From Candidatus Aegiribacteria sp. (GTDB taxonomy: Bacteria; Fermentibacterota; Fermentibacteria; Fermentibacterales; JCC-6), in contig JAGLOY010000001.1 in the NCBI GenBank assembly GCA_023138735.1, forward strand, positions 3,626-67,625: DNA of 64,000 nt. The letters run 5' to 3'. Positions 3,026-42,032 of the stretch are shown one piece after another (positions within the stretch are counted from its first letter, which is position 1; the number at the start of each line of letters is the position of its first letter). Position numbers and translations under genes: made by a program. Below the pieces are notes generated by a model. It worked only from the letters and a program-made list of their open reading frames with translations. It had not been told where the DNA came from and ran no database searches.

Positions 3026-3153
3026 TCTGCTTCCTTTCAGTTAAGAGTATACTTAGATAAATTGGATAATCAACGTAAAGAATAAGGATTTTTCTACCTT
3101 GATGCAATAGCATAGTAGAATAGCATCTACATTTCCGAGTTGTTTACTAGTAA

Positions 3154-7224: not shown

Positions 7225-7498
7225 CCTTCTTTTCTGAAGCCGGTCAAGACTGAAACAGGCTGTCTCCGAACCGCTGAAGAATGCGGAAAGCAGAAGAAGA
7301 AGTACCAGGGCTACGTATTTCAGCAGTTACACCTCCCCAGGAGCCTGTCCGACAATGAGACATTGGCATAAAATCCACACAGCTGGCTATAATACTCGCA
7401 TATTTTCGTCAAATACATCCAGTATTCTCCTCAAATCTCCGAGCATTCTATCTCAACTGTGAGAATATTCTGCTCAATGTACATTATCAGACACACTC

Positions 7499-8779
7499 CT
7501 ATTCAATTTCAATATCCAGCATATCCATGCTAAAATCTTCTGTGAAGGTTTTGATGAAGTATCCCTTGCTGGAGTATACCGGCTGAATAACCATCTCAAG
7601 ACTGTAATCACCTCCGGGGACCTGAATACCTCTTGCTGTCATTCCCTCCCACTCCGCGTGGAAAGAACCTGCAGGATGCCTGCCTTCCGCGAGGCGGAAT
7701 ACCGATTCTCCTTCCGAGTTATAGATCATCGCATCAACAAGCGCGTATTCCGTCAGTCTGCCGTCTATCTGAAGACCCCGCCCGGTAGGTTCGATGGAAA
7801 CGTCAATGAAGTCGGCACCCATCCAGAAGTACCTTGCGCCTTCCTCCTCACCTATGAATACCTGCCCGAAGCGTTTCCATATGGCCAAACCTGTAGGAGA
7901 GTAGAATTCCCGGTCTCCGCTGCCTTCAGAACCGAAACTGCAGATATACTCCATACTGTCAGTAAATTTATGCACGCAGCAGGAAATACTGTCCGTTACC
8001 CAGACATTGCCCCAGAAATCGATGGAGGGGTAGTTGAAGAAGGACCCGCCGCAGTCTTCAAGGAAAGCTTGGGCAACGATCTCGCCTTCTGCCAGCTTCA
8101 CTATAGAGGAGGCATCTTCAGTAATCACAACTATGAACTCCTCCTCACTGTGAAACCACCTCTCGTCACTGACAGCATCCACTCCCGTTGGAGAATCTAT
8201 CTCTACTATCTCCGGCAGCGTATCCGCAACTGAACTGTAGATGTAAAGTCTGTCCCCGGCTCGATCCGTCACGTAGATAGTGCCGGTCCCATCCAGAGCT
8301 ACATCCCATGGTTCCTGGAAATCTCCGTGGAGTACTCCCTGCGAAACCAGTCTGGACCCGCTCCTCTTTAGAATAACAACCCTTCTGTTACCGGTATCGG
8401 CGACGAGAACAAAGCCCTCCGGATCGGCTGCAATACCGTGAGGATTCATAAGCTCATCGGGACCTGATCCGTTCCCTCCGTAAAGACCCAGAGTGTACAT
8501 ATTAGCATTGTAGATAATATTGCCGGTGCCTGAATTCACCCCGTATACAGCAAGTTCATCATCGTCACCGGAACCTGTGTCGTCCCAGTCATCAAGCTTG
8601 ACGCATGCAAGTCCCTGGGTGTTATCGAACCTTACCAGCCCTCCCAGAAGCATCGAAAGCTGTTCCGTTCCCGCTCTGTAGATCCCCATACAGTGCCCGA
8701 AAGGCGGATAGACCAGAGTAGTAGAGACCGGAGGATCAACAAAGTAACCTGTAACGATCATCAGTAAAGCAAGTACCAT
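7499..8779 (-). CDS. NHL-repeat beta-propeller protein with FlgD-Ig-like C-terminal region
   Basis: NHL repeats GIAADPEGFVLVADTGNRRVVIL, DVALDGTGTIYVTDRAGDRLYIY and PTGLAIWKRFGQVFIGEE. N-terminal signal anchor. Starts 5 nt after the slt paralogue stop. Confidence 0.7.
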   Translation of the reverse strand: MVLALLMIVTGYFVDPPVSTTLVYPPFGHCMGIYRAGTEQLSMLLGGLVRFDNTQGLACVKLDDWDDTGSGDDDELAVYGVNSGTGNIIYNANMYTLGLYGGNGSGPDELMNPHGIAADPEGFVLVADTGNRRVVILKRSGSRLVSQGVLHGDFQEPWDVALDGTGTIYVTDRAGDRLYIYSSVADTLPEIVEIDSPTGVDAVSDERWFHSEEEFIVVITEDASSIVKLAEGEIVAQAFLEDCGGSFFNYPSIDFWGNVWVTDSISCCVHKFTDSMEYICSFGSEGSGDREFYSPTGLAIWKRFGQVFIGEEEGARYFWMGADFIDVSIEPTGRGLQIDGRLTEYALVDAMIYNSEGESVFRLAEGRHPAGSFHAEWEGMTARGIQVPGGDYSLEMVIQPVYSSKGYFIKTFTEDFSMDMLDIEIE

Positions 8780-8783
8780 ATAT

Positions 8784-13111: not shown

Positions 13112-13127
13112 TTATTTATCCATCCTG

Positions 13128-14609
13128 CTAGTGTCTGAAGTGCCTGGTTCCTGTGAATACCATGGTCATGCCATGCTTGTTCACAGCATCGATAACTTCC
13201 TCATCCCGTATGGATCCTCCCGGCTGCACTATGGCGGCAATTCCCTCTTCGGCAGCTTTGTCAGGACCGTCTCTGAACGGAAAAAAACCATCGGAAGCGA
13301 GTACCGCTCCTGCAAGGGAATGCCCCTCCCTTTTAGCCTTTCTGACGGCAAGGTCAAGGCTTTCAATCCTGCTCATCTGGCCTGCCCCCACTCCAAGGGT
13401 ACCCATGCTGTCACCTATTACAATTGCGTTGCTTTTAACTGACCGGCATACCCTCCAGAGAATATCCATTGCATCCAGTTCCTGCTTCGAAGGCTGGCGC
13501 AACGAGACTACATTCACCTCTTCGAGACCACTGACAGGATCGGTGTCCTGATATAGAAATCCTCCGTTGATGCTTCTGACCTGTCTTCCATTTTCCGTGC
13601 CGTCCGGCAGTCTCAGGATTCTCAGCTTCTTCCTTTTCTGAAGCCGCAGCAGAGCATCGGAATCGAATGAAGGGGCCATTACTATTTCCAGGAACATTCC
13701 TTTAAGCCCGGCGACAAGTTCCATATCAACATTGCAGTTCATGGCGAGTATCCCGCCGTATGGCGAAACACTGTCAGCCCTGAAAGCATTATCGAAAGCT
13801 GCCTTGGGTGTGTTTCCCCTTCCGGCACCACAGGGATTACCATGTTTCATAAGGACAGCAGAAGGGGAACCTTCCGGCATCTCCAGAGCAAGATCCCATG
13901 CGGCTGTTGCATCCAGATAATTGTTGTAGCTCAAGTTTTTCCCGCCCAGTATCTCCGCACTTCCAAAGCCTCGTCTGGGCCATGTGAAGTGCACTACAGC
14001 CGATTGATGAGGGTTCTCGCCGTATCGAAGCTCGGGAACAAATCCTCTTTCCATGCTGAGCGAGATGTCAAGATCGTAACGAGATGTAATATCGAATGTT
14101 CTTGATGCGATCATTCTTCTGAATTCTTCATCATCCGCACCTTTGGAAATCACCTCAAGCACTTCGGGAAAGACATCGCATCCAACAGCTGATATGACGT
14201 GGCGCCAGTTCTTTGCGGCGGCACGGGCCATTGTGGGGCCGCCTATATCAATGAATTCGACCAGTTCGGGATCATCCGCTTCCATTCCAACCGTTTTTTC
14301 GAAAGGATAGAAATCGACAGCCACCAGATCAAATACCGGTTTGCCTTCCCTGATTCTGTCTGCTCTGTCTTCTCCAGCTGCAAGGATAGAAGCATGAAGT
14401 TCGGGATGAAGGGTTTTCACCCTCCCGCCAAGCAGTGAGCTTATGCCGGTTATTTCCTCGGTCGGGATCACATCGATTCCGGTTTTCTCAATATGTTCCG
14501 CAGTTCCTCCGGATGCGTATATCTTCCATCCCAGGCCGGAAAGCCCGGTGGCCAGCTTATCCAGATTTTTCTTGTTCCATGCACTGATCAGCGCGGTTTT
14601 ATCAGCCAT
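13128..14609 (-). CDS. purH: Bifunctional AICAR transformylase / IMP cyclohydrolase
   Basis: MGS-like N-terminus ALISAWNKKNL..ASGGTA..GGRVKTLHPELHASILA, and an AICARFT domain ending VQPGGSIRDEEVI..MVFTGTRHFRH. Confidence 0.95.
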   Translation of the reverse strand: MADKTALISAWNKKNLDKLATGLSGLGWKIYASGGTAEHIEKTGIDVIPTEEITGISSLLGGRVKTLHPELHASILAAGEDRADRIREGKPVFDLVAVDFYPFEKTVGMEADDPELVEFIDIGGPTMARAAAKNWRHVISAVGCDVFPEVLEVISKGADDEEFRRMIASRTFDITSRYDLDISLSMERGFVPELRYGENPHQSAVVHFTWPRRGFGSAEILGGKNLSYNNYLDATAAWDLALEMPEGSPSAVLMKHGNPCGAGRGNTPKAAFDNAFRADSVSPYGGILAMNCNVDMELVAGLKGMFLEIVMAPSFDSDALLRLQKRKKLRILRLPDGTENGRQVRSINGGFLYQDTDPVSGLEEVNVVSLRQPSKQELDAMDILWRVCRSVKSNAIVIGDSMGTLGVGAGQMSRIESLDLAVRKAKREGHSLAGAVLASDGFFPFRDGPDKAAEEGIAAIVQPGGSIRDEEVIDAVNKHGMTMVFTGTRHFRH

Positions 14610-15345
14610 TATCCTCCATCCATTTCCTGGCGTTGAAATATACTATCGGATTACGTTTATGTTCCGTGGACTTAACCATCTTTTGTATACTTGCTGCTGC
14701 TGACTCGGAGATGTTCCCGCCATCGAAATATGCCCTGATATCCAGGTAGGATACTCCCATTTCCTGCTCATCACTCTGCCCCTGCCAGAGACCGGCGGAC
14801 GGTACCCGGTCGATAACCCACCGGGGAAGCCCCAGGACGACGGCAAGTTCTCTTACCTCATCTTTGTACAATCCGGCAATTGGAAGAAGATCGGCAGCTC
14901 CATCCCCCCACTTCGTCCAGTAACCGACAAGTATCTCCGAGTAATTACTTGTTCCCAGAACAAGCCTTCCAGTAGAATGAGCGTACAGCATAGCCATTCT
15001 CAAGCGTGATTTGATGTTCGCAATATTCAATACGGATGTATCATCAAGATCGCCGGTAAAGGCCTGGAGAACGGGGGTGAGATCGATTGTCCTGTGTCTT
15101 ACTCCAAGATGCTCTGCTATCTTAATACCGTCATCAGTATCCGATTGCATGCTCGCGCAGGGCATTATCAATCCAAGTACATCCTCAGTTCCGAGGGCTC
15201 CGGCACACAGAGCGGCTGAGACCGCGGAGTCCAGTCCACCGCTCAGACCGACAACCACACCGCTCACGGATGCTTCCGAAACTGTCTTGTTTATCCATTC
15301 CTCAATCGAATCTGCCAGCCCCCTGTAATCAATTGTCCGATTCAT
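14602..15345 (-). CDS. nadE: NH3-dependent NAD+ synthetase
   Basis: PP-loop motif GLSGGLDSAV. 247 aa with family-typical length and C-terminus. 8-nt overlap with purH. Confidence 0.9.
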   Translation of the reverse strand: MNRTIDYRGLADSIEEWINKTVSEASVSGVVVGLSGGLDSAVSAALCAGALGTEDVLGLIMPCASMQSDTDDGIKIAEHLGVRHRTIDLTPVLQAFTGDLDDTSVLNIANIKSRLRMAMLYAHSTGRLVLGTSNYSEILVGYWTKWGDGAADLLPIAGLYKDEVRELAVVLGLPRWVIDRVPSAGLWQGQSDEQEMGVSYLDIRAYFDGGNISESAAASIQKMVKSTEHKRNPIVYFNARKWMEDNG

Positions 15346-15348
15346 TAT

Positions 15349-17412
15349 TTATTCCCTGACAGGTTTCAGTGATAGTTTTCTTGCCATCGGGTCAACTGCG
15401 AGAACCTCGACTTTCAGGAATGTACCCTCATGATAGGGTCCGCCGGACTCGGTGAAGGGAATTCCAGCTCGCAGAATTTCAGATCTATGCGCCAGCCCTT
15501 CGACCGGTACACCTTCAAGTCTTACGAAAACACCGAAGTCCTTTACACCGGTAACCACTCCATTGAAGACAACTCCGATATTCCTTGAAAGAAAAAGCAT
15601 TGCCATGAGTTCGTCAGCTTCCCTCTCCGCACTCTCAGCATTGTCCTCAGCTGCATTGGATGTCTCGGCAACTACAGCAGGACCGAAATCCAGGAGAGGG
15701 ATATCACCCTTCTCCTGCATAGCCAGTACCTGGTGAACAATAAGGTCAGGGTAGCGGCGGATAGGGCTTGTGAAATGAAGGTAACTCCGCAGTGCCAGTC
15801 CGAAGTGCCCCGTGTTCGACGGCAGGTAGACAGCTTTCTGCATCGACCTGAGGATATATTCAACCGCGAGATCATACAGGGGTGAATCCCTGAGACTGTC
15901 CAGGATCTTTTTCAGAACGGAAGGATTGTGCACTTTGCCCCCGGGAAGGGAGATATCAAGCATTTCAAGCTGCCGCACAAGACGCTCCTCGGATATTTCT
16001 ACAGGCTCGTCATGTACTCTGAAGAGAACGGGCAGGTCCGACCACATGCAGTGATCGGCAACGGCTCTGTTGGCTTCCACCATGAAATTCTCGATCAATC
16101 TGTGTGCCCTGTCCGAAGGAACGGGTTTGAAACCCTCCGGCCAGCCGTCCTCACCGAAAACAACCCGGTATTCGCTGCTCCCGAGGTCAAGAGCACCCCT
16201 GTTTTCCCGGAGGGTATCAAGGTCCGCGGAAAGAACCCCCATAGATTCAAACAACTGCCGGAGGTTTTCTTCGGTTCCGTTACCCTCCAGATAATCAAGA
16301 GCTTCTTCGTAGGTCATCCTTCTGTCCGAACGGATAACGGATGGAACTATGGAAAAATCCTGGCGCTCACCTGATCTGTCGAACTTCATCACAACGGTTC
16401 TCGTTGGTCTTTCTTCATCAGGTTTCAGGCTGCAGGCACCGTTGGAGAGTACCTGCGGAATCATCGGCAGCACCCTGTCCGGAAGGTATACACTTGTCCC
16501 TCTGAGTCTAGCTTCATTATCAAGCCCGCTGCCTGGCGCAACGTAATGAGCAACATCCGCTATATGCACATAGAGCGTCCTGACACCGTCCTCGATCACC
16601 AGTGAAACGGCATCATCAAAATCCTTCGCATCCACAGGGTCGATGGTTATGGTGAAAAGCTCGCGAAAATCCTCTCTTCCGTTCAGAACCCAGGGCTCGG
16701 AAGCAAGCTCTTCCGCCATTGAAAGCAGATTCTCCGGAAACTCATCGTGAAAACCATGATCAAGCACCACCGAATCGATCAATGCCCGGGGAGAAGTCGG
16801 GCTGCCGAGATCTTTCTTAAGTTCGGCAGTCAGCTTCTTTCCGGAGTAGTCCAGCGTCGCGAAGACAAGCCTTCCCTGCGATATATCGGTATCGGAAATG
16901 GTACTGAGCGGTATTTCCCTTGGAAGAACAGGATTAACCGGATCTATCACCCATTTTCTTCCCTTTTTCCTTGCTATTCCGCTTAAACCCGCTCTTCTGC
17001 GTTTGATGACGGTCTCTATCTTTCCCCTGTAGCGACCCTCTCCCGGAAGGGATTCAAGCTTACGGGCCATAACAAGATCACCATCAAGCGAGCCCGATGT
17101 GTTGCGGGCATCGATATCGATCCTCTCCCCTTCAGTCTTAACAAAACCGCTTCCATTCGCACGAATGACTATGGTCCCGGCTGATATTCCCAGTTCGGAA
17201 GGAAGCGCATATCGCCTGTCCCCAGCGGGCCATAGCAGTCCTTTCTCCACGAGTTGCTCCACTGCAGCCCCGAGATCAGGGTGCACACCTTCCAGCTTTG
17301 CGGCGATCTGCTGGAAAGTCAGCCTGGATGAGGGTTCGCTCTGAAAAAGCTCGAGCACAGCATCCAGCGCTTCGGCATTCGACCCGGAAACTACTGACTT
17401 GTCGAGGGGCAT
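15349..17412 (-). CDS. rnr: Ribonuclease R
   Basis: RNB catalytic domain (ITIDPVDAKDFDDAVS, HFGLALRSYLHFTSPIRRYPDL) and C-terminal S1 domain (GVVTGVKDFGVFVRLEG). I place the start at ATG 17412 (MPLDKS..), 1 nt after the upstream stop and behind GGAGGA, rather than the track start at 17481. Confidence 0.9.
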   Translation of the reverse strand: MPLDKSVVSGSNAEALDAVLELFQSEPSSRLTFQQIAAKLEGVHPDLGAAVEQLVEKGLLWPAGDRRYALPSELGISAGTIVIRANGSGFVKTEGERIDIDARNTSGSLDGDLVMARKLESLPGEGRYRGKIETVIKRRRAGLSGIARKKGRKWVIDPVNPVLPREIPLSTISDTDISQGRLVFATLDYSGKKLTAELKKDLGSPTSPRALIDSVVLDHGFHDEFPENLLSMAEELASEPWVLNGREDFRELFTITIDPVDAKDFDDAVSLVIEDGVRTLYVHIADVAHYVAPGSGLDNEARLRGTSVYLPDRVLPMIPQVLSNGACSLKPDEERPTRTVVMKFDRSGERQDFSIVPSVIRSDRRMTYEEALDYLEGNGTEENLRQLFESMGVLSADLDTLRENRGALDLGSSEYRVVFGEDGWPEGFKPVPSDRAHRLIENFMVEANRAVADHCMWSDLPVLFRVHDEPVEISEERLVRQLEMLDISLPGGKVHNPSVLKKILDSLRDSPLYDLAVEYILRSMQKAVYLPSNTGHFGLALRSYLHFTSPIRRYPDLIVHQVLAMQEKGDIPLLDFGPAVVAETSNAAEDNAESAEREADELMAMLFLSRNIGVVFNGVVTGVKDFGVFVRLEGVPVEGLAHRSEILRAGIPFTESGGPYHEGTFLKVEVLAVDPMARKLSLKPVRE

Positions 17413-17413
17413 T

Positions 17414-18430
17414 TCAGATATCCTCCTTATCGATCGGTACAAGAAGAGAAATGGATCCGCCTTCACTGTTCCAGGCTCCAAGCCTGAATGTGAGCTTTGC
17501 CGTAACGGCTATCAGTGCGGCCCGGTTCAGCAGATCAGCAGCGGAATCCATGCTATTTGGGCAGAGTCCGGAACTCTTAGAAGAGGAGTTCCAGTTTAGT
17601 CTGAATTCCACTGCTTCCTCCTGCGGGGATACTGACATTTCTATCGATCCGCAGCCGTTAACCGATATTGTGGCAGCAGCAGCGATCAACCCTGTCAGAA
17701 GGTTCATCAGGTTTTTTCTGACAGGTATCTTCCCGGGCATGCCGCCCTTCTCTTCGTATGTGAATTTAACTGAAGTCCCGCTGGACATCCGGGTGAGTTC
17801 CAGTACGTCCGTCTCGTTACCGGAAGTCCATTCACTCTCGTCATCATCAGGCATGGAATAAACGGATAACCTTTCGAGGAAACTCCTGAGTTCATCCGTA
17901 GCTTCAAGAGCGATGGAGAGCTTTTTCGAAGCTTTATCGGTTCTGCCGCTGTGAAATTCAGCAAGTTCTATATTCCCCATTATCCGCGCAAGGATATTGT
18001 TCATGTTGTGAATGAAAAACGGTAGAAGAGAACCGGTTCTTTCCCACAGGATACAATTCAGGCTCGCTGCGGAATCCGCATGCATGCCGGCAGAACATGC
18101 CATTCTCCTGAGTAATTCAAGGGTGAAATCGCTCCGATGAAGGAGTATGGGAAACCCGATTCCGGCATCCGGCGCGAAAGTGAGAATAGCAGCTGAGGGA
18201 ACAGCTGAAGAAAGAAAATCCCTTCCAGCCTCCCGGTACAAATTCTCAAGTTCCTGACTATCAGCGGGGCAGAAGACTCCGAAGATCATTCTTCCGGGAC
18301 CGTCATACTTCTCAAGATCATTCAGAAGTACACATGGGAATGGAATTCTGTCATTGATCCATTTGTATATTTCTTCTCTTCTACTGCCCCACAGAACAAC
18401 GGCCCCCGGTCTGCCTGCATCCATAATCAC
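17414..18430 (-). CDS. Histidine-kinase-like protein with an H-box but degenerate ATP-binding motifs (possible pseudokinase)
   Basis: H-box FFIHNMNNILARIMGNIELAEF resembles HDFNNLL-type HisKA. The C-terminal region ends like HATPase_c (AWNSEGGSISLLVPI), but I see no N-box Asn or DxGxG/GxGLG boxes. Confidence 0.5.
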   Translation of the reverse strand: MIMDAGRPGAVVLWGSRREEIYKWINDRIPFPCVLLNDLEKYDGPGRMIFGVFCPADSQELENLYREAGRDFLSSAVPSAAILTFAPDAGIGFPILLHRSDFTLELLRRMACSAGMHADSAASLNCILWERTGSLLPFFIHNMNNILARIMGNIELAEFHSGRTDKASKKLSIALEATDELRSFLERLSVYSMPDDDESEWTSGNETDVLELTRMSSGTSVKFTYEEKGGMPGKIPVRKNLMNLLTGLIAAAATISVNGCGSIEMSVSPQEEAVEFRLNWNSSSKSSGLCPNSMDSAADLLNRAALIAVTAKLTFRLGAWNSEGGSISLLVPIDKEDI

Positions 18431-18442
18431 TCTCTTCCTTTT

Positions 18443-19096
18443 CTACTCTCTGCGCGGTTTCACAAGCGGTACGAATCTTACCGGAAGGGATTCCCTCATT
18501 ACCAGATCATCGCCGTTCCTGGTTATGGATATCAATCTCTGAGACCAGTCTCCCAGAGGTATAACCAGCCTGCCGCCCAAAGGATTCAGCTGATCCTCAA
18601 GCCCGTCTGGCATTCGCGCAGGAGCAGCGGATACGATTATGCAGTCGTACGGGGCTGCAGGTGTCCATCCATTGTATCCGTCTGCCACGATGAACCTGAT
18701 ATCCGCCCCGGGAAGAATGGCAAGAACTGCCTTTCTTGCATTTACTGCCAGGTCCGGCAGCAGCTCAATTGTAACCACTTTCATTCCCATTGCAGCGAGG
18801 ATAGCTGTCTGATAACCTGAGCCTGTTCCTATTTCGAGAACACTGTTTCCCGGTTCACATTCAAGCATCTGAAGCATGAAAGCAACGATGTAGGGCTGTG
18901 ATACCGTCTGTCCGAGTCCAATGGGCAGGGGATGATTGCCGTACGCGTTAACAAGATTTATACGGGGGGGAACGAAATCCTCCCTTGGTATTTTCATGAA
19001 GGCATTGAGAATGCGCTCGTCTACAATTCCAACGTCCGCAAGATCTCTATTTACCATTCTCAAGCGAAGGATGGCAGATGACGATTCAGAATTCAA
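18443..19096 (-). CDS. pcm: Protein-L-isoaspartate O-methyltransferase
   Basis: GQTVSQPYIVAFMLQML and the SAM motif VLEIGTGSGYQTAILA. 217 aa. Confidence 0.92.
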   Translation of the reverse strand: MNSESSSAILRLRMVNRDLADVGIVDERILNAFMKIPREDFVPPRINLVNAYGNHPLPIGLGQTVSQPYIVAFMLQMLECEPGNSVLEIGTGSGYQTAILAAMGMKVVTIELLPDLAVNARKAVLAILPGADIRFIVADGYNGWTPAAPYDCIIVSAAPARMPDGLEDQLNPLGGRLVIPLGDWSQRLISITRNGDDLVMRESLPVRFVPLVKPRRE

Positions 19097-33581: not shown

Positions 33582-33995
33582 ATGAAAAACGATTCACACA
33601 AAAAAATCCTGGAAATGCTCTCCGACGGCAAGATCACCGTTGAGGAAGCTACAGCGCTTCTTTCAAAACTTCAGGATCCTGAGACTACCGACGATGAGAT
33701 CATCGAATCGGAATCCGGAGAAGTCAGAAAAAGAGCTCCAAAGTACCTGAGAGTAGTGGTTGACTCTTCCAACGGAGACAAAGTTAATGTAAGGGTCCCC
33801 ATGAGCCTTCTAAAGACAGGCATAAAGCTGTCAGCCCTACTTCCTGGCAATGCCGCGGAACAGATGAGCAGTCATGGGTTCGACCTGTCCCAGCTCTCCA
33901 AACTTGACGGGGATGAACTCATCGAAGCTCTGAGCGATCTTACGGTCGATGTGGACAGCGCCGATGGAGACAAGGTCAGGGTTTTTACCGAATAG
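33582..33995 (+). CDS. SHOCT-like domain protein (common DUF2089 partner)
   Basis: N-terminal KILEMLSDGKITVEEATALLSKL is a SHOCT-like motif. Repeated ..GDKVNVRVP.. / ..GDKVRVF.. segments. GGGGAA precedes the ATG. Confidence 0.55.
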   Translation: MKNDSHKKILEMLSDGKITVEEATALLSKLQDPETTDDEIIESESGEVRKRAPKYLRVVVDSSNGDKVNVRVPMSLLKTGIKLSALLPGNAAEQMSSHGFDLSQLSKLDGDELIEALSDLTVDVDSADGDKVRVFTE

Positions 33996-34030
33996 ATAAC
34001 GCTCTTTCTTCAGTTATACTTTCGTTCAAA

Positions 34031-34891
34031 CTAATGCAGTGGAATGTTAAAGTTTCTGTGCCTGATAATCGAGTTATCAATAATGCACAATCCGACGAGA
34101 CCCAGATCTACAGTAACACCTACTCGTTTGTCTCCGGCAATGGTATTCCAGGCTCTTCTCATACCTTCAGACCAGGTAATGTCATCGAAAACAAGAAGTG
34201 CTGTTTCACCAAGAAAGGGAAGAATCTGTTCAAAGTATGCCAGAGTTGCATGCTCATCGTGGTGACCGTCAATAAAAACGAAGTCAACCGGCCTCCGGGC
34301 GGCAAGGACATCGGCAAGTGTGTCCTGAAAGTTCCCGACTGTTATTGTAACGGAATCGAGACCGAGTTGCTGGAAGTTATTTCTGGCAATGTCTGCGAGT
34401 GAAGCTGCCCCCTCGAGTGATACCAGTGAACCATGTCCGTTCAAAGTCAATGCTGCGGCCTGGCAGGCTGCCGACAGGCCTACTGCTGTTCCCATTTCGA
34501 TGCATGAATCAGGCTGGATGGTTCGAATGAGTTTGAACAGTAACAGACACCAGAAGGAAGGCTTGCTAGCAACTTGACTGATATGGCCAAGTGTATCCGT
34601 CACTTCAACACCAGCTCGCATTTCATCCAGTTTCAGATTCGAATCATGATTTCTAGCTCCATAATCCATACGAGTGATCTGCATGGTTGATGAATTCATC
34701 TCGGTACGCAGATTCTCTACTCGGTCGATCCAGTATTCTTCTTCAGGTGTCAGAGAGCACTTCAATGCTGCTCTGACACTTTGCTGGATAGATCGCGAAA
34801 TACGATCTCCATTACGACTTAGACGGTACAGGTTCAACGATCGTTCAAACATTCGGTGAGGTTTGCGAACAGCCTTAGAAATGATGGACAT
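34031..34891 (-). CDS. Class I SAM-dependent (O-)methyltransferase with ~100-aa N-terminal extension
   Basis: CIEMGTAVGLSA (motif I), VDFVFIDGHHDEHATLAYFEQILPFL, and LLVFDDITW. Confidence 0.7.
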   Translation of the reverse strand: MSIISKAVRKPHRMFERSLNLYRLSRNGDRISRSIQQSVRAALKCSLTPEEEYWIDRVENLRTEMNSSTMQITRMDYGARNHDSNLKLDEMRAGVEVTDTLGHISQVASKPSFWCLLLFKLIRTIQPDSCIEMGTAVGLSAACQAAALTLNGHGSLVSLEGAASLADIARNNFQQLGLDSVTITVGNFQDTLADVLAARRPVDFVFIDGHHDEHATLAYFEQILPFLGETALLVFDDITWSEGMRRAWNTIAGDKRVGVTVDLGLVGLCIIDNSIIRHRNFNIPLH

Positions 34892-35133
34892 GAGAACCTC
34901 CCGTTTACTCTGGTGTAAAATAGTACACTTAAGAAGAATGTAACAATAACACTACCATAGAAGAGGCATATTTGCAATAATCCTGTAAGATAATATGTGT
35001 CGAATGAAAACCGGTCAGGAATGACGGAAAGAGAAAAACCAGATCTTCACCGAATAGAAAGGACGGGTTATCTGACACTTGACATTACGCTAGTATATTC
35101 CCCTTCTCTATTAGATGTAGAAAGGAAATATCC

Positions 35134-36123
35134 TTGAAAATTGCCCTTGCGGGAAAACAGGGCTGCGGCAGGTCCACTCTATTCCGTGCACTTGCTGGTT
35201 CCCCGGAAGCTGACTCGGGGAAACCTCTTACGGTTAAGGTTCCAGATCACAGACTGGACTTTCTTGAGCGCATCCATAACCCGCTTAAGAATATTCATGC
35301 AACGGTTGTATTCTTCGATGTTCCAACCCCCTCCTTCTCATCGAAAAATCTGACTCTTATCAGGAATGCTGCGGTACTGACGATAGTCCTTGATAACTAT
35401 GCGCTGGGTGATACCGTAAACGATTTCAATGAGATCGAATCGGAGCTCATTCTGAACGATATGGCCCTGTGTGAAAAAAGACTGGCTCGCCTTGTCAAAG
35501 AGAGCAAAGGTAAAACCAGGGAAGCCCTTCTACTAGGGAACCTTCAGAAGCATATGGAGAATGGCAGCCCTCTGCGAATTTTTAACCTTGATAAAGGAGA
35601 AGCTGCAATTCTGGCTCCTTACGCCCTTCTCTCCCTAAAACCTCTTATAGTGGTTTCCAATAGAATGGGTGATCCAATAACTCCTGATGATGAACTGTCC
35701 GCTGCAGTATCTGAACATGGAGGAATCCTTCTCGCTATCGATGCAGGATTCGAGCTTGAACTTACCGAGATCGATGAAAGTGAACAGGCTCCTTTTCTTG
35801 AATCAATGGGCTATTCCTCCAGCGGACTCTCCCGGCTGATCAGATCGGCGTATTCAACACTTGATCTTATAGTCTTTTTCACCATTGGAAAGGATGAAAC
35901 AAGGGCATGGCCCATTAGAAAAGGTTCAACTGCTCTGGACGCTGCGGGAATCATCCATTCCGACCTTGAAAGAGGCTTTATCCGTGCAGTTGTCGTACCT
36001 TGGGAGCTTTATCATGAGCATCCTGACAGAACGCTGCTGAAGGAAAAAGGAGAACTCCGGATCGAAGGAAAGGAATACACCGTTGAAGATGGTGATCTGA
36101 TAGAAATTCGATTCAACGTCTGA
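35134..36123 (+). CDS. YchF-family (Obg-like) P-loop NTPase, divergent, with Walker-A Lys replaced by Arg
   Basis: TTG start. MKIALAGKQGCGRSTLFRAL. C-terminal YchF/TGS-like FFTIGKDETRAWPIRKGSTALDAAGIIHSDLERGFIRAVV. The last 101 nt are duplicated at 39141. Confidence 0.75.
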   Translation: MKIALAGKQGCGRSTLFRALAGSPEADSGKPLTVKVPDHRLDFLERIHNPLKNIHATVVFFDVPTPSFSSKNLTLIRNAAVLTIVLDNYALGDTVNDFNEIESELILNDMALCEKRLARLVKESKGKTREALLLGNLQKHMENGSPLRIFNLDKGEAAILAPYALLSLKPLIVVSNRMGDPITPDDELSAAVSEHGGILLAIDAGFELELTEIDESEQAPFLESMGYSSSGLSRLIRSAYSTLDLIVFFTIGKDETRAWPIRKGSTALDAAGIIHSDLERGFIRAVVVPWELYHEHPDRTLLKEKGELRIEGKEYTVEDGDLIEIRFNV

Positions 36124-36142
36124 TCAAACCAACAGGGAACCT
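36023..36142 (+). repeat. Direct repeat copy 1 (3' end of the YchF-like gene plus 19 nt)
   Basis: 120 nt, with 112/120 identical to 39141-39260 by my manual alignment. Confidence 0.9.
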
Positions 36143-36444
36143 GACCGACATGGCGCAGACTGCAGTGTCGAGCTTCGGAAAAGCTTTGCAGATGCGCCTG
36201 GGACTCACTCACAATGTTTCCTCATGAAGCCCTTGATCGCAGGGATGCTTTTCCGGCGGTAAAGCCATTGGAACTTGTCTGCGAGCCATTACATTCGCGA
36301 ATATCAGTTCCATGGCAGGACGATGTCCCTGAAATAGAGGTCGGGTAAGTTGTCAGTAAGAAATCTCTATACTGAGAAGCAAATCTGATAAAGTGCCTGC
36401 AAGTCTAATGGAACAGCAAGGAGAATTCGAACATCAAATGAGAT

Positions 36445-36480
36445 ACCCCGCTATGAAAGTAACACATCATTCAGCGGGGT
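36445..36480 (-). terminator. Probable terminator hairpin after the OMP gene
   Basis: ACCCCGCT (36445-36452) pairs with AGCGGGGT (36473-36480). The loop is 20 nt, which is large, so this call is tentative. Confidence 0.35.
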
Positions 36481-36512
36481 AACTTGTCAGATTAAACAGG
36501 TTTAGGGCGAAG

Positions 36513-37109
36513 CTACAGGCTGAAGCCGTATCCTGCCATGATCATGATCCCGGTATTCTTCACATCCTCCTCATCAGCTGTATTATCGATGCTGGTAAGA
36601 CCAAGGGTATACCTTGCGTCGAACGTAAGCTCACCGACAAGCAGGGAATAATCGACACCTGCTCCAACGACCAGGCCAAAATCAGTTGTTTTCAACGAAT
36701 CCGAAATGTCCTCTTCAACATCTCCCATATATACATCTGCACTCATATTGAATCCTACGTAGGGTCCTGCAAAAATGTTGGGTGATATGGGTCCCAGTGT
36801 AGGTATGGAAAATTTTACCAGAAGAGGAAGATCTATATAGGACATCCTCACACCGCCATCGCTTATTGATTCAAACTCATATCCCTTCATTACATATAGG
36901 AGTTCGGGCTGGATACTGAACGGTCCACCAACGGGAATGTTCAGGAAGGCACCACCGCCGAAGCAAACCTTCATCTCGTTATCCTCGATATCGTCACCAG
37001 CCATGTTAGCAAGGTTAAGTCCGCCCTTGAAACCAAGGGTCAGAATTTCAGAGAGAGCCGCACCGCTGAAAAGAGATACCAGCATCAGGATCAGGATCAA
37101 TCGCTTCAT
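36513..37109 (-). CDS. Outer-membrane beta-barrel protein (OmpA-like/porin family, PF13505-type)
   Basis: Signal peptide MKRLILILMLVSLFSGAAL. Alternating amphipathic strands and a terminal MAGYGFSL. Confidence 0.7.
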   Translation of the reverse strand: MKRLILILMLVSLFSGAALSEILTLGFKGGLNLANMAGDDIEDNEMKVCFGGGAFLNIPVGGPFSIQPELLYVMKGYEFESISDGGVRMSYIDLPLLVKFSIPTLGPISPNIFAGPYVGFNMSADVYMGDVEEDISDSLKTTDFGLVVGAGVDYSLLVGELTFDARYTLGLTSIDNTADEEDVKNTGIMIMAGYGFSL

Positions 37110-37200
37110 CTTTACCCTCCTTCTGGGTACTTGTGCTAGGTCTACCGTATGTAAATTCTATTTCCGCATCATTTTGTCAAGGGCATCTAAATTCTTATAA

Positions 37201-37493
37201 CCAGCAACCTGGAAGAGTGTCTTGATATTGCCCCAGGTCGTTGGACGCAGCGATGTAGTTGAGTCCATAATGAGCCAGGGAGCCAGTTTCAGGAATAGAT
37301 TGATCACTCTCAACGCTGATAGATACGGATACTATAAGGATGACCATCGATTACAGCTGCGGCATAGTAGTGGGCTGCTCTTCTAAGGAAGGTATGGGAT
37401 ATTGAGGTTTTGAAGTGTACGAAGTGCGGAGGACAGATGACGGTCATCCGGTTGTCTTCACCGAAGAGTATATTCCCTGATAATTGTCAATGA
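37201..37493 (+). mobile_element. Relic of an IS91-family (Y2/HUH rolling-circle) transposase gene: two out-of-frame fragments
   Basis: Frame 1 (37201-37386): ..VVGRSDVVESIMSQGASFRNRLITLNADRYGYYKDDHR.. resembles the ..YL.RY..R.AISN.RL....V.F.YKD.. block. Frame 2 (37371-37493): WAALLRKVWDIEVLKCTKCGGQMTVI matches the C-terminal W..LL.RVF.iDvL.CP.CGG.M.ii motif. Confidence 0.6.
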
Positions 37494-37536
37494 AATCAAG
37501 CGTTATGAACGCGGTAAATAGAAAGGTTGCAGAATA

Positions 37537-39063
37537 ATGGAGCGATCCGGGATGGTGCCTCCGCACCTGTTCGTATTTTTCACAGGAGCCGCCGTGATGG
37601 CCACCGAAATGTGCGCCTCCAGGTTTATTGCTCCCTGGTTCGGTACCTCCATGATAGTGTGGTCGGTTCTTATCTCGGTGGTTCTGGCTGCCATGTCCCT
37701 GGGCTACTGGTTGGGTGGCAGACTTGCCGACCGCAGACCCTCCTGGAAGATACTCTTCTCGCTGCCCGTGATAACAGGACTGTTCATCGCTCTTGTTCCC
37801 TTTGCCGGGGAATTCATTTTCTCCAGCCTTACAGCGGGGATCAGGGGAACGCCGGTGAACATCATTGTTCTGTCATTCACGGGGATAATCGCGGTGTTCG
37901 TTCCTCCCGTATTTCTTCTGGCCATGGTCAGCCCATTCGTAATACGTCTTCTGGCCAGGGCTGAGAATACAGGCAGAACCGCCGGGTCCCTCTACGCCAT
38001 GTCCACCCTGGGAAGCATTGCTGGAACCCTTGTTCCCACTCTGCTCACCATACCCTGGCTCGGTACACGGGAAACACTGTTCCTCAGCTCGGGAATGCTT
38101 ATTCTCCTGGGAGGTCTGGGACTGAAGGGCAAAGGCAGGCTTGTGCTTCTGCTGCTGATTGTGCCGGCGGCGGGGTGGACATTCTTCACCGGCGGGATAA
38201 AACAGGGGAACTCCATTGTTCACCAGGAGGAAAGCGCTTACCAGTACCTTCAGGTTCAGATAAGAGACAACGGTTCCACCGTTCTTATTGTTAACGAGGG
38301 GGGCGGTATACAGTCAATCGCCAGGACGGAGAACAGGCTGGACCCGGCTTCTACCTACTACGAGAGCTATCTTCTTCTGCCCTATATGCTGAACGACTCC
38401 GATTCAATTGATGTTCTTGTGATAGGGGCGGGAGCCGGTACCATTCCCCACTGGCTGGCGGTCTATGATCGTCCTTTCTTCCCGGGGCTTTGTACCGATG
38501 CAGTGGAGATAGACTCACGGGCCACAGAGCTGGGTTACGAATGGTTCGGCACCGAGAGGGACGATGCCAGGGTTTTCACCGCCGATGGAAGAGTATTCAT
38601 CGAGAACACATCAAACCTGTATGACCTTATTATCACCGATACCTACAGCAATCAGATCTATATTCCCTTCCATCTCACCACGCTGGAGTACTTCACCGCG
38701 ATCAGAACTCATCTGAACAGTGGGGGCATAGTGGCGATGAATGTGAATGCTGTCAGTGAAAGCTCCGACCTTGTGCAGTCCATCGGGCGCACCGTCGCCC
38801 GGGTCTTCCCCTACGTCTACATTGCCAATGTGGGCAACGACCTGAACTACATGATTGTCGCATCCGATCGGCCTCTTTATGCGCCTCCGGCGGATTCCAT
38901 GATATGCTGGAACCCACCTCTGGATTACACCGCACGGTTGTTCGAACCCCTTTTCATGCCCTTCAGGCCCGAGGATGGATTTGTGCTCACCGATAACAGG
39001 GCTCCCGTTGAGTTCATGACCGACATGATGATAGTCCGGGAGGCCACCGGTGGAAGCAGATAG
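37537..39063 (+). CDS. Fused membrane domain / spermidine-synthase-like (polyamine aminopropyltransferase fold) protein
   Basis: About 7 N-terminal TM segments (FFTGAAVMATEMCASRFIAPWFGTS.., GYWLGGRLADR), then a class-I MTase-like module VLVIGAGAGTIPHWL..DLIITDTYS..GGIVAMNV. Confidence 0.75.
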   Translation: MERSGMVPPHLFVFFTGAAVMATEMCASRFIAPWFGTSMIVWSVLISVVLAAMSLGYWLGGRLADRRPSWKILFSLPVITGLFIALVPFAGEFIFSSLTAGIRGTPVNIIVLSFTGIIAVFVPPVFLLAMVSPFVIRLLARAENTGRTAGSLYAMSTLGSIAGTLVPTLLTIPWLGTRETLFLSSGMLILLGGLGLKGKGRLVLLLLIVPAAGWTFFTGGIKQGNSIVHQEESAYQYLQVQIRDNGSTVLIVNEGGGIQSIARTENRLDPASTYYESYLLLPYMLNDSDSIDVLVIGAGAGTIPHWLAVYDRPFFPGLCTDAVEIDSRATELGYEWFGTERDDARVFTADGRVFIENTSNLYDLIITDTYSNQIYIPFHLTTLEYFTAIRTHLNSGGIVAMNVNAVSESSDLVQSIGRTVARVFPYVYIANVGNDLNYMIVASDRPLYAPPADSMICWNPPLDYTARLFEPLFMPFRPEDGFVLTDNRAPVEFMTDMMIVREATGGSR

Positions 39064-39140
39064 ATGAACACTTTCATCCCTCCTTTGCGAGGAACTTCGA
39101 TGTTGCAGGTCCCCTCAGGTCTGTTTCATTATCCTGAATG

Positions 39141-39260
39141 CTGACAGAACGCTGCTGAAGGAAAAAGGAGAACTCCGGATAGAAGGAAAAGACTACACTG
39201 TTGAAGATGGTGATCTGATAGAGATCCGATTCAACGTCTGATCAAATCAGCAGGGAACCT
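39141..39260 (+). repeat. Direct repeat copy 2: orphan 3' fragment of a YchF-like gene ([32 protein letters not shown]-stop) plus 19 nt
   Basis: The frame is intact to TGA 39239-39241, with no upstream gene body. The repeat ends at the stop codon (39259-39261) of the convergent yihY-like gene. Confidence 0.9.
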
Positions 39261-40182
39261 ACCGGATACTTTTCATCGTTCTCGCCACTTTACGCCATTC
39301 ATGCACGATCTGACTGATCTCAGCGGCACCCAGAAGTATCACGCACTCCCAGTATAGCAGGAAGAATGTAGCCATTACCCTTGCCAGCGCCCCGTAAACC
39401 ACTCCCCACCCCGGATGCCCGATCACCCACATGTAAATTTGTGTACCAAGGCCGGTGAACACTGCTGCTATTACAGTAGCAAGAAAAGCCTGCCCGATAC
39501 TGACCCTGCGGTTGGGAGCAGCCTTGAAAAGGGTGAAGAACAGCAGCAAAGTGAAGGTAATACCCAGTATCTTAGCCAGACCGCCTCCGGTAAGTTGCCC
39601 GATCAAAGGCCATTGGGAGACAATGTCACCCACCGGGCTGTCCACGACCAGACGGGCCATGGTTGAAAAGATCAGTGAGGAGACAAAGCAGAGCGCAACG
39701 AGCAGAGCCAGAACGAAATCGTACAGCTTCCCCAGAACGATATTGCGACCCCTGGCTACTTCGAATACTTTGTCAAATGCAGTCCGAATGGTTCCGAATA
39801 GCCGGCTGACAAGCCATAAAAGAAAAGCGAAACCTACTACCCCGGGTATTCCGGCATTGCCTCTGAAAATGGCGCTTTCTATATCGCTCCTCATGGACTC
39901 GGGAATAAGAGGATTAGCAGTATCGAGCCAGTTTGTAAGGCCCTGCTGAAGGCCTTCGTCCTCCTGGAATGCAAGACCGCTGAACATAAGTATCATCAGA
40001 CCAAGAGGAAGGATGGTTATAAGCACATTAAAGGAAATGGCTGCAGCCGAGAAGAAAACACTGTCATCGTTCCAACGGTTGTAAAGCCTTCTTCCGAAGA
40101 ATCTGATGAAGATCCATGATCTGTGAAAGTACCTTCTTACCGATGCAGCCCAGATGGGAGAAAGTTCACGCCATGATCCCAA
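39259..40182 (-). CDS. YihY/BrkB-family inner-membrane protein
   Basis: FFSAAAISFNVLITILPLGLMIL and 6 TM segments. Family-typical 307 aa. Confidence 0.8.
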   Translation of the reverse strand: MGSWRELSPIWAASVRRYFHRSWIFIRFFGRRLYNRWNDDSVFFSAAAISFNVLITILPLGLMILMFSGLAFQEDEGLQQGLTNWLDTANPLIPESMRSDIESAIFRGNAGIPGVVGFAFLLWLVSRLFGTIRTAFDKVFEVARGRNIVLGKLYDFVLALLVALCFVSSLIFSTMARLVVDSPVGDIVSQWPLIGQLTGGGLAKILGITFTLLLFFTLFKAAPNRRVSIGQAFLATVIAAVFTGLGTQIYMWVIGHPGWGVVYGALARVMATFFLLYWECVILLGAAEISQIVHEWRKVARTMKSIR

Positions 40183-40196
40183 TTTGGCAGTCAGAT

Positions 40197-42032
40197 TTAC
40201 TCTACCGTTACACTTTTAGCGAGATTTCTGGGTTTATCAACATCACATCCCCTGGCAACGGCGATATGATAGGATAAGAGCTGAAGCGGAATAACACTGA
40301 GCAGAGGAACAAGCATGTCCGGCGCTTCGGGAACCCTTATAATCCAGTCTGAAACCGATTCGATATCGGTATCTCCTTCGGTAGCTATGGCAAGGACCCT
40401 TCCGTGTCTTGCCCTTACTACCTGTATATTGGAGATTATCTTATCATAAGCTGCGCCCTTAACGGCAATCACAGCAATGGGCATCAACTCATCTATCAGA
40501 GCAATGGGTCCGTGCTTCATTTCAGCAGCCGGGTAACCTTCCGCATGAATGTAGGATATTTCCTTGAGCTTAAGGGCACCTTCGAGTGCTACAGGGTAGT
40601 TCACCCCCCTGCCAAGGTAGAGGAAATTTCTCGCGTATGTAAATTCCTTTGCTATCTCAGCTATACTGCTGGAATTCTCCAGAATCTTCCTGACCTTGTC
40701 AGGTATAGCCATGATCTCCCGGACAAGTTCAAGCCCCTGTTTTCGGTTGAGAATATGCCTGGCTCTTCCAAGGGCAAAGGCTATCAGGATAAGGGCCATC
40801 ACCTGAGAAGTGAACGCCTTTGTTGAGGCGACTCCAATCTCGGGACCCGCGTGAATATATACTCCGGCATCTGTTTCACGGGCTATGGTCGAACCAACTA
40901 CATTCACAATACCGAGGGTGCGGCATTTCCTCTCTTTAGCCAGTTTCAGGGCAGCCAGCGTATCCGCTGTCTCACCACTCTGACTTATCACTATCATTAC
41001 AGTATCAGGAGATAGAACAGGATCACGGTATCGGAACTCGGAAGCGTACTCCACCTGTACGGGAATTCTTGCATAGGCCTCGATAAGGTACTTGCCTATG
41101 GAAGCCGCATGCCAGGACGTTCCACAGGCAGTAATTACTATTCTGCTGATGGATCTCATATCCTCCTCGGACATCTGCAGGCCTCCCAGATGCGCTGTGC
41201 CCTGAACCAGATCCAGCCTGCCCCGAAAAGCGTTTGTGAGAGATTCAGGCTGACTGTATATCTCTTTCAGCATGAAATGGGGGTAGCCGTCCTTTTCGAT
41301 ATCAGTGATATCCCAGTCTACATATTCGATCCGTTCTCGTATCAGCGATGGATGACCGTTATCCGATTGAATCCCTTCGAGGTTCACTTCAATAACTTCA
41401 CCCTCTTCAAGGTAGATCACATCCCTGGTGTGAGATACAATGGCAGCAACGTCACTGGCTACGAAATACTCCTTATCACCTATACCGGCTACAAGGGGGC
41501 TGCCGTAGCGGGCTGCTACAAGTGTGTTCGGCTCATCCGCGGAGAGGACAGCGATTCCGTATGCTCCATGTACCTTAACAAGCGCGTCTTTAACGGCAGT
41601 GAAGAGCTTCTTCCCTTTTGCGACTTCCTGGCTTATCAGCATCGGCAGCACTTCAGAATCTGTTTCCGATTCGAACTTAATCCCGGACCTGATGAGATCC
41701 TTCCTCAGTGTCATGAAATTCTCAATAATACCGTTATGTACAACGGCTATCCTTCCCGCCTGATCGTAATGGGGATGCGCGTTTGTATATGAAGGTTCAC
41801 CATGTGTAGCCCATCGCGTATGAGCTATTCCCACATTTGATGAAGAAGCAGTTCCGGGATCGATATTTTCGAGGTCACTGACGCGCCCTTCACATTTCTT
41901 TATAAGGAGGTTGCCTTTGTTCTGAAGTGCGTATCCTGCTGAATCGTAACCTCTGTATTCAAGACGTTTCAGCCCGGCAAGAAGTACTTCCCTGGCAGGT
42001 TTGTATCCAACGTATCCGACTATTCCACACAT
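40197..42032 (-). CDS. glmS: Glutamine--fructose-6-phosphate aminotransferase
   Basis: MCGIVGYVG..RLEYRGYDSAG (Ntn Cys2), two SIS domains, and C-terminal DKPRNLAKSVTVE. Confidence 0.97.
   Translation of the reverse strand: MCGIVGYVGYKPAREVLLAGLKRLEYRGYDSAGYALQNKGNLLIKKCEGRVSDLENIDPGTASSSNVGIAHTRWATHGEPSYTNAHPHYDQAGRIAVVHNGIIENFMTLRKDLIRSGIKFESETDSEVLPMLISQEVAKGKKLFTAVKDALVKVHGAYGIAVLSADEPNTLVAARYGSPLVAGIGDKEYFVASDVAAIVSHTRDVIYLEEGEVIEVNLEGIQSDNGHPSLIRERIEYVDWDITDIEKDGYPHFMLKEIYSQPESLTNAFRGRLDLVQGTAHLGGLQMSEEDMRSISRIVITACGTSWHAASIGKYLIEAYARIPVQVEYASEFRYRDPVLSPDTVMIVISQSGETADTLAALKLAKERKCRTLGIVNVVGSTIARETDAGVYIHAGPEIGVASTKAFTSQVMALILIAFALGRARHILNRKQGLELVREIMAIPDKVRKILENSSSIAEIAKEFTYARNFLYLGRGVNYPVALEGALKLKEISYIHAEGYPAAEMKHGPIALIDELMPIAVIAVKGAAYDKIISNIQVVRARHGRVLAIATEGDTDIESVSDWIIRVPEAPDMLVPLLSVIPLQLLSYHIAVARGCDVDKPRNLAKSVTVE

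Follow-up and report, generated by a model that had tools for sequence, protein, structure and literature searches.

The locus described here raises the question of how the 3' end of a gene can occur twice, once on the intact gene and once as an orphan approximately 3.1 kb further downstream, with accessory DNA in between. It lies within a 64,000-nucleotide (nt) stretch from Candidatus Aegiribacteria sp. (GenBank assembly GCA_023138735.1, contig JAGLOY010000001.1, positions 3,626 to 67,625, forward strand), referred to below as the window, and comprises a ychF-like GTPase gene, a direct repeat of its 3' end, the insert bracketed by this repeat and a convergently oriented yihY/BrkB gene. Direct repeats derived from the 3' end of a gene are usually read as att sites, and the first-pass annotation of the window followed the logic of an island that integrates into such a gene end. 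The analyses presented here identified the ychF/yihY junction as an insertion hot spot at which, according to the interpretation towards which we lean, the 3' end of ychF was displaced by recombination and not by an integrase-driven island. The following features define the junction:

35134-36123, plus strand: intact YchF-like GTPase gene, 329 amino acids (aa); PF06071, E=8.6e-31; TIGR00092, 191.6 bits, under the curated cut-off

36020-36142, plus strand: repeat copy 1 (R1), the final 104 nt of ychF including the stop codon, followed by 19 nt of intergenic spacer; found by the repeat search

39138-39260, plus strand: repeat copy 2 (R2), an orphan ychF 3' fragment of 104 nt followed by 19 nt of spacer, abutting the yihY stop codon; the putatively displaced end

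39259-40182, minus strand: yihY/BrkB-family membrane protein gene, convergent with ychF; PF03631, TIGR00765

The repeat search returned R1 and R2 as one 123-nt direct repeat (93% identity, spacing 3118), the runner-up in the 9.5-kb region comprising merely 33 nt at 76% identity. Within the repeat, 36023-36142 and 39141-39260 are identical at 112 of 120 positions (8 mismatches), so that the bracketing of an approximately 3.1-kb insert was reproduced as originally described, and both copies share an exact core of 40 nt (36023-36062 = 39141-39180). R1 was confirmed as the real end of ychF and R2 as an orphan: the latter keeps its frame open to the same TGA, lies outside any long open reading frame (ORF) and ends within the stop codon of yihY. 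Six differences between the copies fall into the coding part. All six are located at codon position 3; five are synonymous and one changes E to D, again as reported initially, and the remaining two differences lie in the 19 nt 3' of the stop codon. The YchF-like protein is identical to MCK5114992.1 (metagenome-assembled genome (MAG): Candidatus Aegiribacteria sp.), which is encoded on a 189-kb contig. It matches the YchF equivalog model from residue 93 on, whereas its N-terminal G domain is divergent (P-loop GKQGCGRST). Since the protein is short, scores below the cut-off and possesses a divergent G domain, 'YchF-like' is considered the safer name; the gene is called ychF below for brevity.

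Relatives of the locus were collected by YchF protein scans of one genome per species and of Joint Genome Institute (JGI) metagenomes. Approximately 20 close relatives were obtained, all of them Fermentibacteria/Aegiribacteria MAGs or contigs (contigs are designated by L numbers). The states of the ychF/yihY junction recorded among them, apart from that of the window, are:

Empty site: L009/L093, L010, L015, L016, L017, L018, L020, L094, L095, L097 and L099

Cargo class A: L008, L011 and L019; a 194-aa ORF, the L008 protein being without a Pfam match

Cargo class B: L013 and L014; a different segment

Cargo class C: L012; a 731-aa LVIVD-repeat protein with a type IX secretion system (T9SS) sorting domain

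The junction is empty in 11 contigs, where the two stop codons are only 3-50 nt apart and an unoccupied equivalent of an attB site is represented. R2 together with yihY has the same form as these empty-site junctions. The proposal that R2 and yihY preserve an ancestral-type junction, relative to which the intervening DNA is an insert and which should be traceable without insert in relatives, was thus upheld. The three other cargo classes are unrelated to the cargo of the window; each of these occupants amounts to one gene (0.6-2.4 kb), and their ends are unrelated to one another. A duplicated gene end is carried by two of the four cargo classes. The second case, L008, features an intact ychF, a 915-nt insert with a cargo differing from that of the window, and a 64-nt orphan ychF end abutting yihY. 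Its two copies (10928-10991 and 11843-11906, 64 nt) are 83% identical without any exact block longer than 13 nt, and no IS91 DNA was found at the L008 duplication locus. The left boundary of the duplication, relative to the ychF stop codon, is at -104 in the window and at -60 in L008, and the L008 orphan starts at the position equivalent to the end of the window's 40-nt exact block (-60). Moreover, both orphans were observed to carry ATA where nearly all intact genes have ATC. In L008, L011 and L019, the cargo does not start directly at the intact ychF but only after the spacer and 10-20 nt of a yihY 3' end, indicating that the duplicated unit covers the whole junction. Taken together, the empty sites, the unrelated cargos and the L008 duplication reveal a true insertion at a hot spot, and the convergent ychF/yihY junction is an insertion hot spot in the Aegiribacteria/Fermentibacteria lineage.

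Chromosomal hot spots of horizontal gene transfer between core genes mostly exchange their cargo by double crossover and leave no duplication behind. The ychF/yihY junction resembles them in that varied accessory genes occupy one interval between conserved genes and in that recombination tracts occur in the flanks (see below); unlike most of them, it shows a duplicated gene end in the two cargo classes mentioned. The interval directly 5' of ychF is also variable. In the window it harbors an O-methyltransferase gene (34031-34891, minus strand), which was also found in L008, L010 and L094-L096. L012-L016 and L019 are without this gene and DUF2089C abuts ychF, while L009, L011 and L017 feature a longer gap 5' of ychF that likewise lacks the O-methyltransferase gene. 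Furthermore, L014 4895-5024, located after the class B insert, matches L013 6468-6596, approximately 1.3 kb upstream of the L013 ychF, which suggests further rearrangement around ychF in that lineage.

The insert of 3.1 kb consists of two intact gene modules interleaved with three truncated fragments of an IS91-family tnpA gene:

36145-36348, plus strand: tnpA fragment alpha, cut off on its 5' side at R1, shortened internally by a deletion of 771 nt and reaching as far as the tnpA stop codon

36349-36417, no strand assigned: spacer of 69 nt without a match in any fetched locus or in the insertion sequence (IS) reference

36418-37207, minus strand: outer-membrane protein (OMP) module, comprising the gene of an outer-membrane beta-barrel protein (36513-37109, 198 aa), preceded by its own upstream region and equipped with a terminator hairpin (36447-36480)

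37208-37369, no strand assigned: segment of 162 nt without a match in any fetched locus

37370-37468, plus strand: tnpA fragment beta, zinc-ribbon region LLRKVWDIEVLKCTKCGGQMTVI, truncated on both sides

37466-39070, plus strand: spermidine-synthase (speE) module with a fused MFS/spermidine-synthase gene (37552-39063, 503 aa; alternative start 37537)

39062-39115, plus strand: tnpA fragment gamma, truncated on both sides

39116-39137, no strand assigned: short filler between gamma and R2 without significant similarity to ychF or the IS reference

The initially listed cargo, namely an OMP gene, an IS91-type relic and a membrane-fused spermidine-synthase gene, was recovered, except that the single relic turned out to be three separate fragments. 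The OMP protein matches PF13568 (E=7e-27) and the TDE1717 family (94 bits, below cut-off), and its terminator hairpin reaches z = -3.4. Homology of this module to relatives extends over 36418-37043 in L175, 36513-37187 in L173/L176 and approximately 36477-37207 in L177, the latter being approximately 95% identical as judged by eye. OMP homologues in relatives share 68-69% aa identity and reside in the context 55-aa-ORF / OMP / TetR / RND, one of them in the same MAG as the empty-site locus L016. A further homologue occupies a different gene context, and a 94%-identical copy is located on a 773-nt contig from another sample. The spermidine-synthase module includes 86 nt upstream and 7 nt downstream of the gene, whose product matches NF037959 (206.7 bits, above cut-off) and PF01564. 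Approximately 40 Fermentibacteria homologues with about 60-90% aa identity were found. In all relatives examined (L088, L089-L092) the gene adjoins dnaE, encoding the DNA polymerase III alpha subunit; window positions 37466-39070 are 86.4% identical at the nucleotide level to L088 475-2077 (gene at 547-2070), with nothing matching beyond.

For both modules, homology to relatives ends a few tens of nt past the gene. Judged from these comparisons, the cargo is not foreign DNA; next to the tnpA fragments, it consists of lineage-typical genes that appear to have been moved from other chromosomal contexts. The earlier assumption that incoming DNA had supplied a new 3' end therefore persists with regard to the insertion, but not with regard to a foreign origin of the cargo. 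A comparison of the base composition of the insert with its flanks, as proposed earlier, revealed a GC content of 45-47% for the left cargo, as in the flanks, and of 52-55% for the spermidine-synthase gene, which is similar to yihY and glmM. Segment 37208-37369 showed no significant similarity to the IS91 reference (35 of 500 shuffles score equally), and a promoter/terminator consensus scan added little. A further hairpin at 36153-36199 (z=-2.8) falls inside fragment alpha.

Assignment of the tnpA fragments was based on a reference from a related contig, L178 2091-3128, which carries a 345-aa Y2-transposase gene (PF04986, E=4.8e-14; NF033538 IS91 family, E=2.7e-28). For alpha, blastn and tblastn matched 36181-36261 to L178 2196-2277 (83%) and 36308-36348 to L178 3088-3128 (95%), whereas the extensions to 36145 and 36263 are weaker matches; the fragment is followed by GTTG. 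Beta corresponds to L178 2891-2969 over 37370-37448 (86%, E=4e-22; tblastn E=3e-7) and resembles the C-terminus of the NCBIfam model ISCR_clade_Ia (E=0.01). Gamma matches L178 2651-2704 (81%, E=4e-10; tblastn E=1.5e-4) and overlaps the end of the spermidine-synthase module by approximately 6-9 nt of imperfect microhomology. Of the 345 aa of the reference, residues 20-61 (approximately) and 320-345 are covered by alpha, 268-298 by beta and 188-205 by gamma. An intact HUH-Y2 transposase (PF04986 / NF033538) is not encoded in the window, which contains fragments only; Pfam did not recognize the translated relics, and further IS91-like DNA was not detected in the 64 kb. The two ends expected of an IS91-type element, oriIS and terIS, differ from each other, and oriIS adjoins a CTTG or GTTC target (PMC13181058). 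None of the three fragments exhibits a recognizable IS terminus, oriIS or terIS, although the ends of the family have not been delimited for this lineage; alpha was judged against seven other copies, in which a conserved segment of approximately 40 nt 3' of the stop codon is present that alpha lacks.

The seams between the parts of the insert show microhomologies of 2-6 nt, namely CCG at the R1/alpha seam, GAG at beta/speE and TGA(A/G)CA at speE/gamma, while approximately 22-25 nt of filler separate gamma from R2. These seams are marks of illegitimate recombination, not of transposase cleavage, and they are not att sites; att-like ends were not found in the insert. Two earlier interpretations of this DNA were abandoned. 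The IS91 relic had been regarded as one gene split once with its halves permuted, a hint at a circular intermediate that was derived from the relic in L019; comparison with the longer reference L178 2091-3128 proved part of that alignment to be spurious and resolved three separate fragments. Likewise, 39064-39140 had been considered a decayed upstream extension of the orphan ychF, but the similarity was not significant (46 of 1000 shuffles for the whole gene, 1205 of 2000 for the colinear 100 nt), and most of this interval is occupied by gamma.

The IS91-family element has proliferated strongly in this lineage. Short ORFs of 50-155 aa that correspond to the last approximately 90 aa of its transposase, with 66-96% identity to the query, form 87 clusters in Aegiribacteria, Fermentibacteria and Sabulitectum MAGs, and a relic of the family is also present at L019 2064-2511. 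On L178, six copies are distributed over 19 kb (1900-18835); all of them share one tnpA 3' end, their 5' truncations differ, and the accessory gene that follows (GH10, GH8, FG-GAP/T9SS proteins) changes from copy to copy. Abortive rolling-circle transposition or ISCR-like gene arrays (ISCR, insertion sequence common region) would give such a pattern.

Evidence for a site-specific recombinase was sought in several places. Pfam searches detected no integrase among all ORFs of the insert and none among all called genes within 10 kb on either side, in line with the original observation that no integrase is present. In addition, no recombinase was seen in the occupants of the site in L008, L012 and L013, and viral contigs, when searched for an attP-like sequence mimicking the ychF end, yielded no matches. 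Lack of an integrase, joins consisting of microhomology or filler, and a duplication boundary at -60 in L008 versus -104 in the window argue against the originally assumed integration of an island into the 3' end of the gene.

Two contigs of an independent Logan assembly (run SRR13892605) are exactly equal to window positions 36291-39170 and 39151-40964. Their ends at the repeat coincide precisely with the points at which the 40-nt core forces a k=31 de Bruijn graph to branch; the join between cargo and R2 and that between R2 and yihY are thus each present in the reads, with the phase across the core left open by these contigs. The contig covering the cargo, L005, begins at 36291, i.e., inside alpha and not at the repeat, which fits a multi-copy IS tail in the sample at which the graph branches. 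The window furthermore corresponds to scaffold_91 of a European Nucleotide Archive (ENA) metagenome (sample SAMN18200495), with 100% identity over window positions 25134-50182. As deduced from the scaffold coordinates, the window extends approximately 14.9 kb beyond the end of scaffold_91 and would hence represent a separate, longer assembly. The metagenomic nature of the sample and the open phase could be taken to mean that the copies were joined from different strains, or from an empty site and a free 3.1-kb circle. A simple misjoin at the repeat, however, would yield one hybrid ychF and not two copies; both right-hand junctions occur in independent unitigs, two assemblies of apparently different extent agree, and the 40-nt core is presumably shorter than the reads and than the large k-mers of modern assemblers. 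An assembly artefact is unlikely to account for the repeat-cargo-repeat structure, and to an artefact or a wrong phase as a whole we assign a practically negligible probability.

Divergence at four-fold degenerate sites was used to compare the ancestry of the locus with that of its flanks. In the right flank, the window is sister to L095, with values of 0.13 for both glmM and the 5' half of yihY and of 0.18 for glmS. Divergence from L095 rises to 0.32-0.40 in ychF, DUF2089C and the 3' half of yihY (0.32), where it equals that from L008, whereas the distance between L008 and L095 is unchanged across the junction. Fisher tests supported the shift (ychF versus glmS and glmM, p=2e-8; yihY halves, p=0.008). 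A tract of different ancestry was observed from approximately 33600 to 39730, containing the entire repeat-cargo-repeat structure. The methyltransferase gene inside it shows an intermediate divergence of 0.25, and the tract itself may be mosaic. Since both repeat copies belong to one divergent ychF lineage and the block differs in ancestry from the right flank, the block was probably imported ready-made and not built in this genome, in contrast to the initial view that the structure arose here by insertion. According to the simplest reading, the whole block (ychF, R1, cargo, R2 and the 3' half of yihY) entered the backbone as a unit via homologous recombination in the flanks, and the duplication would have arisen earlier, in the donor lineage.

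The two gene ends themselves belong to one divergent ychF lineage: R2 is approximately 93-94% identical to R1, 83% identical to L095 and 74-84% identical to the intact ychF of the relatives compared. Evidence on which copy is native was mixed, since R2 agrees with L095/L010 at two of the six variant sites and R1 at three. Of random changes in the coding stretch, 24% would be synonymous, compared with the six third-position differences seen. After polarization with relatives, at least three silent changes were placed on the orphan branch. Furthermore, P0302, encoded on a 13-kb ENA contig and the nearest full-length YchF allele in the protein collection (95% aa identity), terminates exactly in the R2 peptide; a YchF combining this ending with the window's own gene body was not present in that collection. 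The third-position differences and P0302 lend moderate support to the suggestion made from the sequence at first inspection that two alleles evolved under selection, and it is moderately supported that the orphan is the former end of a working ychF in a sister lineage.

From the repeat, the empty sites, the hot spot, the mosaic make-up, the microhomology joins, the lack of an integrase and the ancestry shift, all of which were observed directly, the order of events and the recombination mechanism are reconstructed as follows. Donor DNA of a closely related lineage would have carried its own ychF 3' end together with the cargo. On the left side, the incoming DNA would have recombined with the resident ychF by homology, whereas on the right side the join, located 104 nt short of the resident stop codon, would have been illegitimate, a process termed homology-facilitated illegitimate recombination. 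Integration of a circle bearing a junction fragment by a single homologous crossover (Campbell-type) would be an equivalent route. As the outcome, ychF would have remained intact and the resident final 104 nt with the spacer would have been orphaned beside yihY, after which the finished block could have spread, or been imported, by ordinary homologous recombination in flanking genes. An element-encoded integrase or an active transposase would play no present role.

The arrangement in the window, i.e., an allelic 3' end on the intact gene, then the insert, then a same-orientation orphan of the old end, is the one expected of displacement. Displacement of 3' ends by homology-facilitated illegitimate recombination, leaving orphan 3' fragments behind, has been proposed for Rhs loci and for effector-immunity arrays of type VI secretion systems (T6SS) (PMC5361080). 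As in Rhs, contact-dependent inhibition (CDI) and T6SS displacement, the window gene keeps its conserved 5' part while gaining an allelic 3' end and extra DNA, the old end lies downstream as a same-orientation orphan, a dedicated recombinase is missing and the donor is of a related lineage. In contrast to these systems, the gene concerned encodes a housekeeping-type GTPase and not a polymorphic toxin; its two ends differ by one residue, so that ychF undergoes no functional exchange and the payload is the cargo, and the illegitimate junction consists of filler without clear microhomology.

Several points weigh against displacement by recombination. With only six coding differences, the two-allele argument is of moderate strength (about p=0.01-0.04, an estimate). 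The illegitimate right-hand join contains filler instead of clean microhomology, and the mechanism is read from the anatomy of the locus alone. A single homology-anchored event, moreover, does not by itself account for the fact that copy 1 retains the spacer, and possibly some nt from the end of yihY, ahead of the cargo; with Campbell-type crossover of a circle, one step would suffice for both boundaries, but the circle itself would then need a source. None of the eight differences between the copies lies outside the 83 nt on the right of the repeat (P about 0.04 under a uniform spread), and the start of the L008 orphan falls where the 40-nt block stops, perhaps an indication that crossover favors this point. 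Finally, displacement presupposes that DNA of a related donor is taken up, by natural competence or another route, and anchored in a RecA-dependent manner, for which the ancestry shift across the block offers no more than indirect support in this uncultured lineage.

The main alternative, capture by ISCR/IS91-type rolling-circle transposition, is possible, albeit unlikely. An IS91-family element beside ychF would have read through its terminator end into the last approximately 104 nt of the gene, and the resulting circle, composed of the ychF fragment, the IS and captured genes, would have been rescued by homologous recombination with ychF, thereby duplicating its end. This scenario gains plausibility from the three same-strand IS91-family fragments at the module boundaries, from the L178 array with its constant 3' end, variable 5' truncations and changing accessory genes, and from the multi-copy tnpA tail across Aegiribacteria MAGs. 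The rolling-circle model serves to explain partial duplications of the 3'-conserved segment (3'-CS) around ISCR1 in complex class 1 integrons (PMC6834847, PMC3575428), and one-ended transposition as well as circular intermediates have been described (PMC13181058). The window resembles such integrons, since a segment is duplicated, with a partial second copy, around same-strand IS91 DNA and non-cassette genes, and since the IS fragment beside the first repeat is 5'-truncated, like ISCR1 at the 3'-CS. It differs from them in possessing neither an intact transposase nor recognizable oriIS and terIS ends, alpha being devoid of the conserved post-stop segment. Moreover, what precedes the orphan is a mid-gene fragment and filler instead of an oriIS end, the seams show microhomology and do not represent transposase cleavage sites, and the sister case L008 shows a like duplication of the ychF end without IS91 DNA.

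Tyrosine recombinases insert genomic islands and cis-mobilizable elements (CIMEs) at the 3' terminus of conserved genes. That the insert represents a CIME-like remnant is regarded as distinctly unlikely. In this case a tyrosine or serine recombinase, since lost or acting in trans, would have integrated a circle with an attP mimicking the ychF 3' end, with R1 and R2 as attL and attR and the crossover core within the 40-nt identical block. Compared with these elements as a general type and with no named family, the window shares direct repeats from the 3' end of the gene, a restored gene and empty sites in relatives. The exact block, the repeated use of the junction and the coincidence between the L008 orphan start and the end of the window block (-60) would also fit. 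Nevertheless, a recombinase is missing from the insert, from the 10 kb on either side and from the other occupants seen, the occupants are small single genes with unrelated ends, and the differing left boundaries (-104 and -60) give no evidence of a fixed crossover position. The very small cargo, its patchwork interior joined by microhomology and the viral-contig scan without a match to the ychF end likewise speak against it. Still less probable is a tandem duplication in place (approximately 125 nt) at the ychF/yihY junction, with the cargo arriving later between the copies and the copy differences arising afterwards, partly by allelic replacement of the intact ychF. The copies are indeed mutual closest relatives (94%, versus 74-84% between R2 and the intact ychF of relatives), and the region recombines often; but the changes on the orphan branch, at least three, are all silent and at third positions, which is unexpected for a non-coding relic (about 0.02-0.04, an estimate), a full-length allele with the R2 ending exists, and two events at the same point would be needed, in two lineages with different boundaries. 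A further idea, to which we attach very little credence, is that the junction serves as a dedicated docking site for small integrase-less modules, i.e., circles with a junction mimic of approximately 100 nt that are handled by a host or trans-acting recombinase. Insertion and excision might then take place at a preferred point approximately 60 nt before the ychF stop codon, where the window block ends and the L008 orphan starts, and coexistence of an empty site with an excised circle of 3.1 kb in the sample would agree with the Logan graph. If the idea holds, Fermentibacteria would possess an exchange system resembling that of cassettes.

For annotation practice, the locus calls for caution in equating a direct repeat of a gene end with an att site, as the evidence here favors recombinational displacement. 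The biological payoff is modest, the cargo being an OMP gene and a fused MFS/spermidine-synthase gene and the type of event being known already. However, the ychF/yihY junction offers a clean example, from a candidate phylum without cultured members, of accessory DNA built and moved without a dedicated integrase. Recombination is anchored in the conserved convergent genes, the housekeeping gene survives owing to the duplicated gene end, and the boundaries of the relocated chromosomal genes are marked by debris of a prolific IS91-family element.

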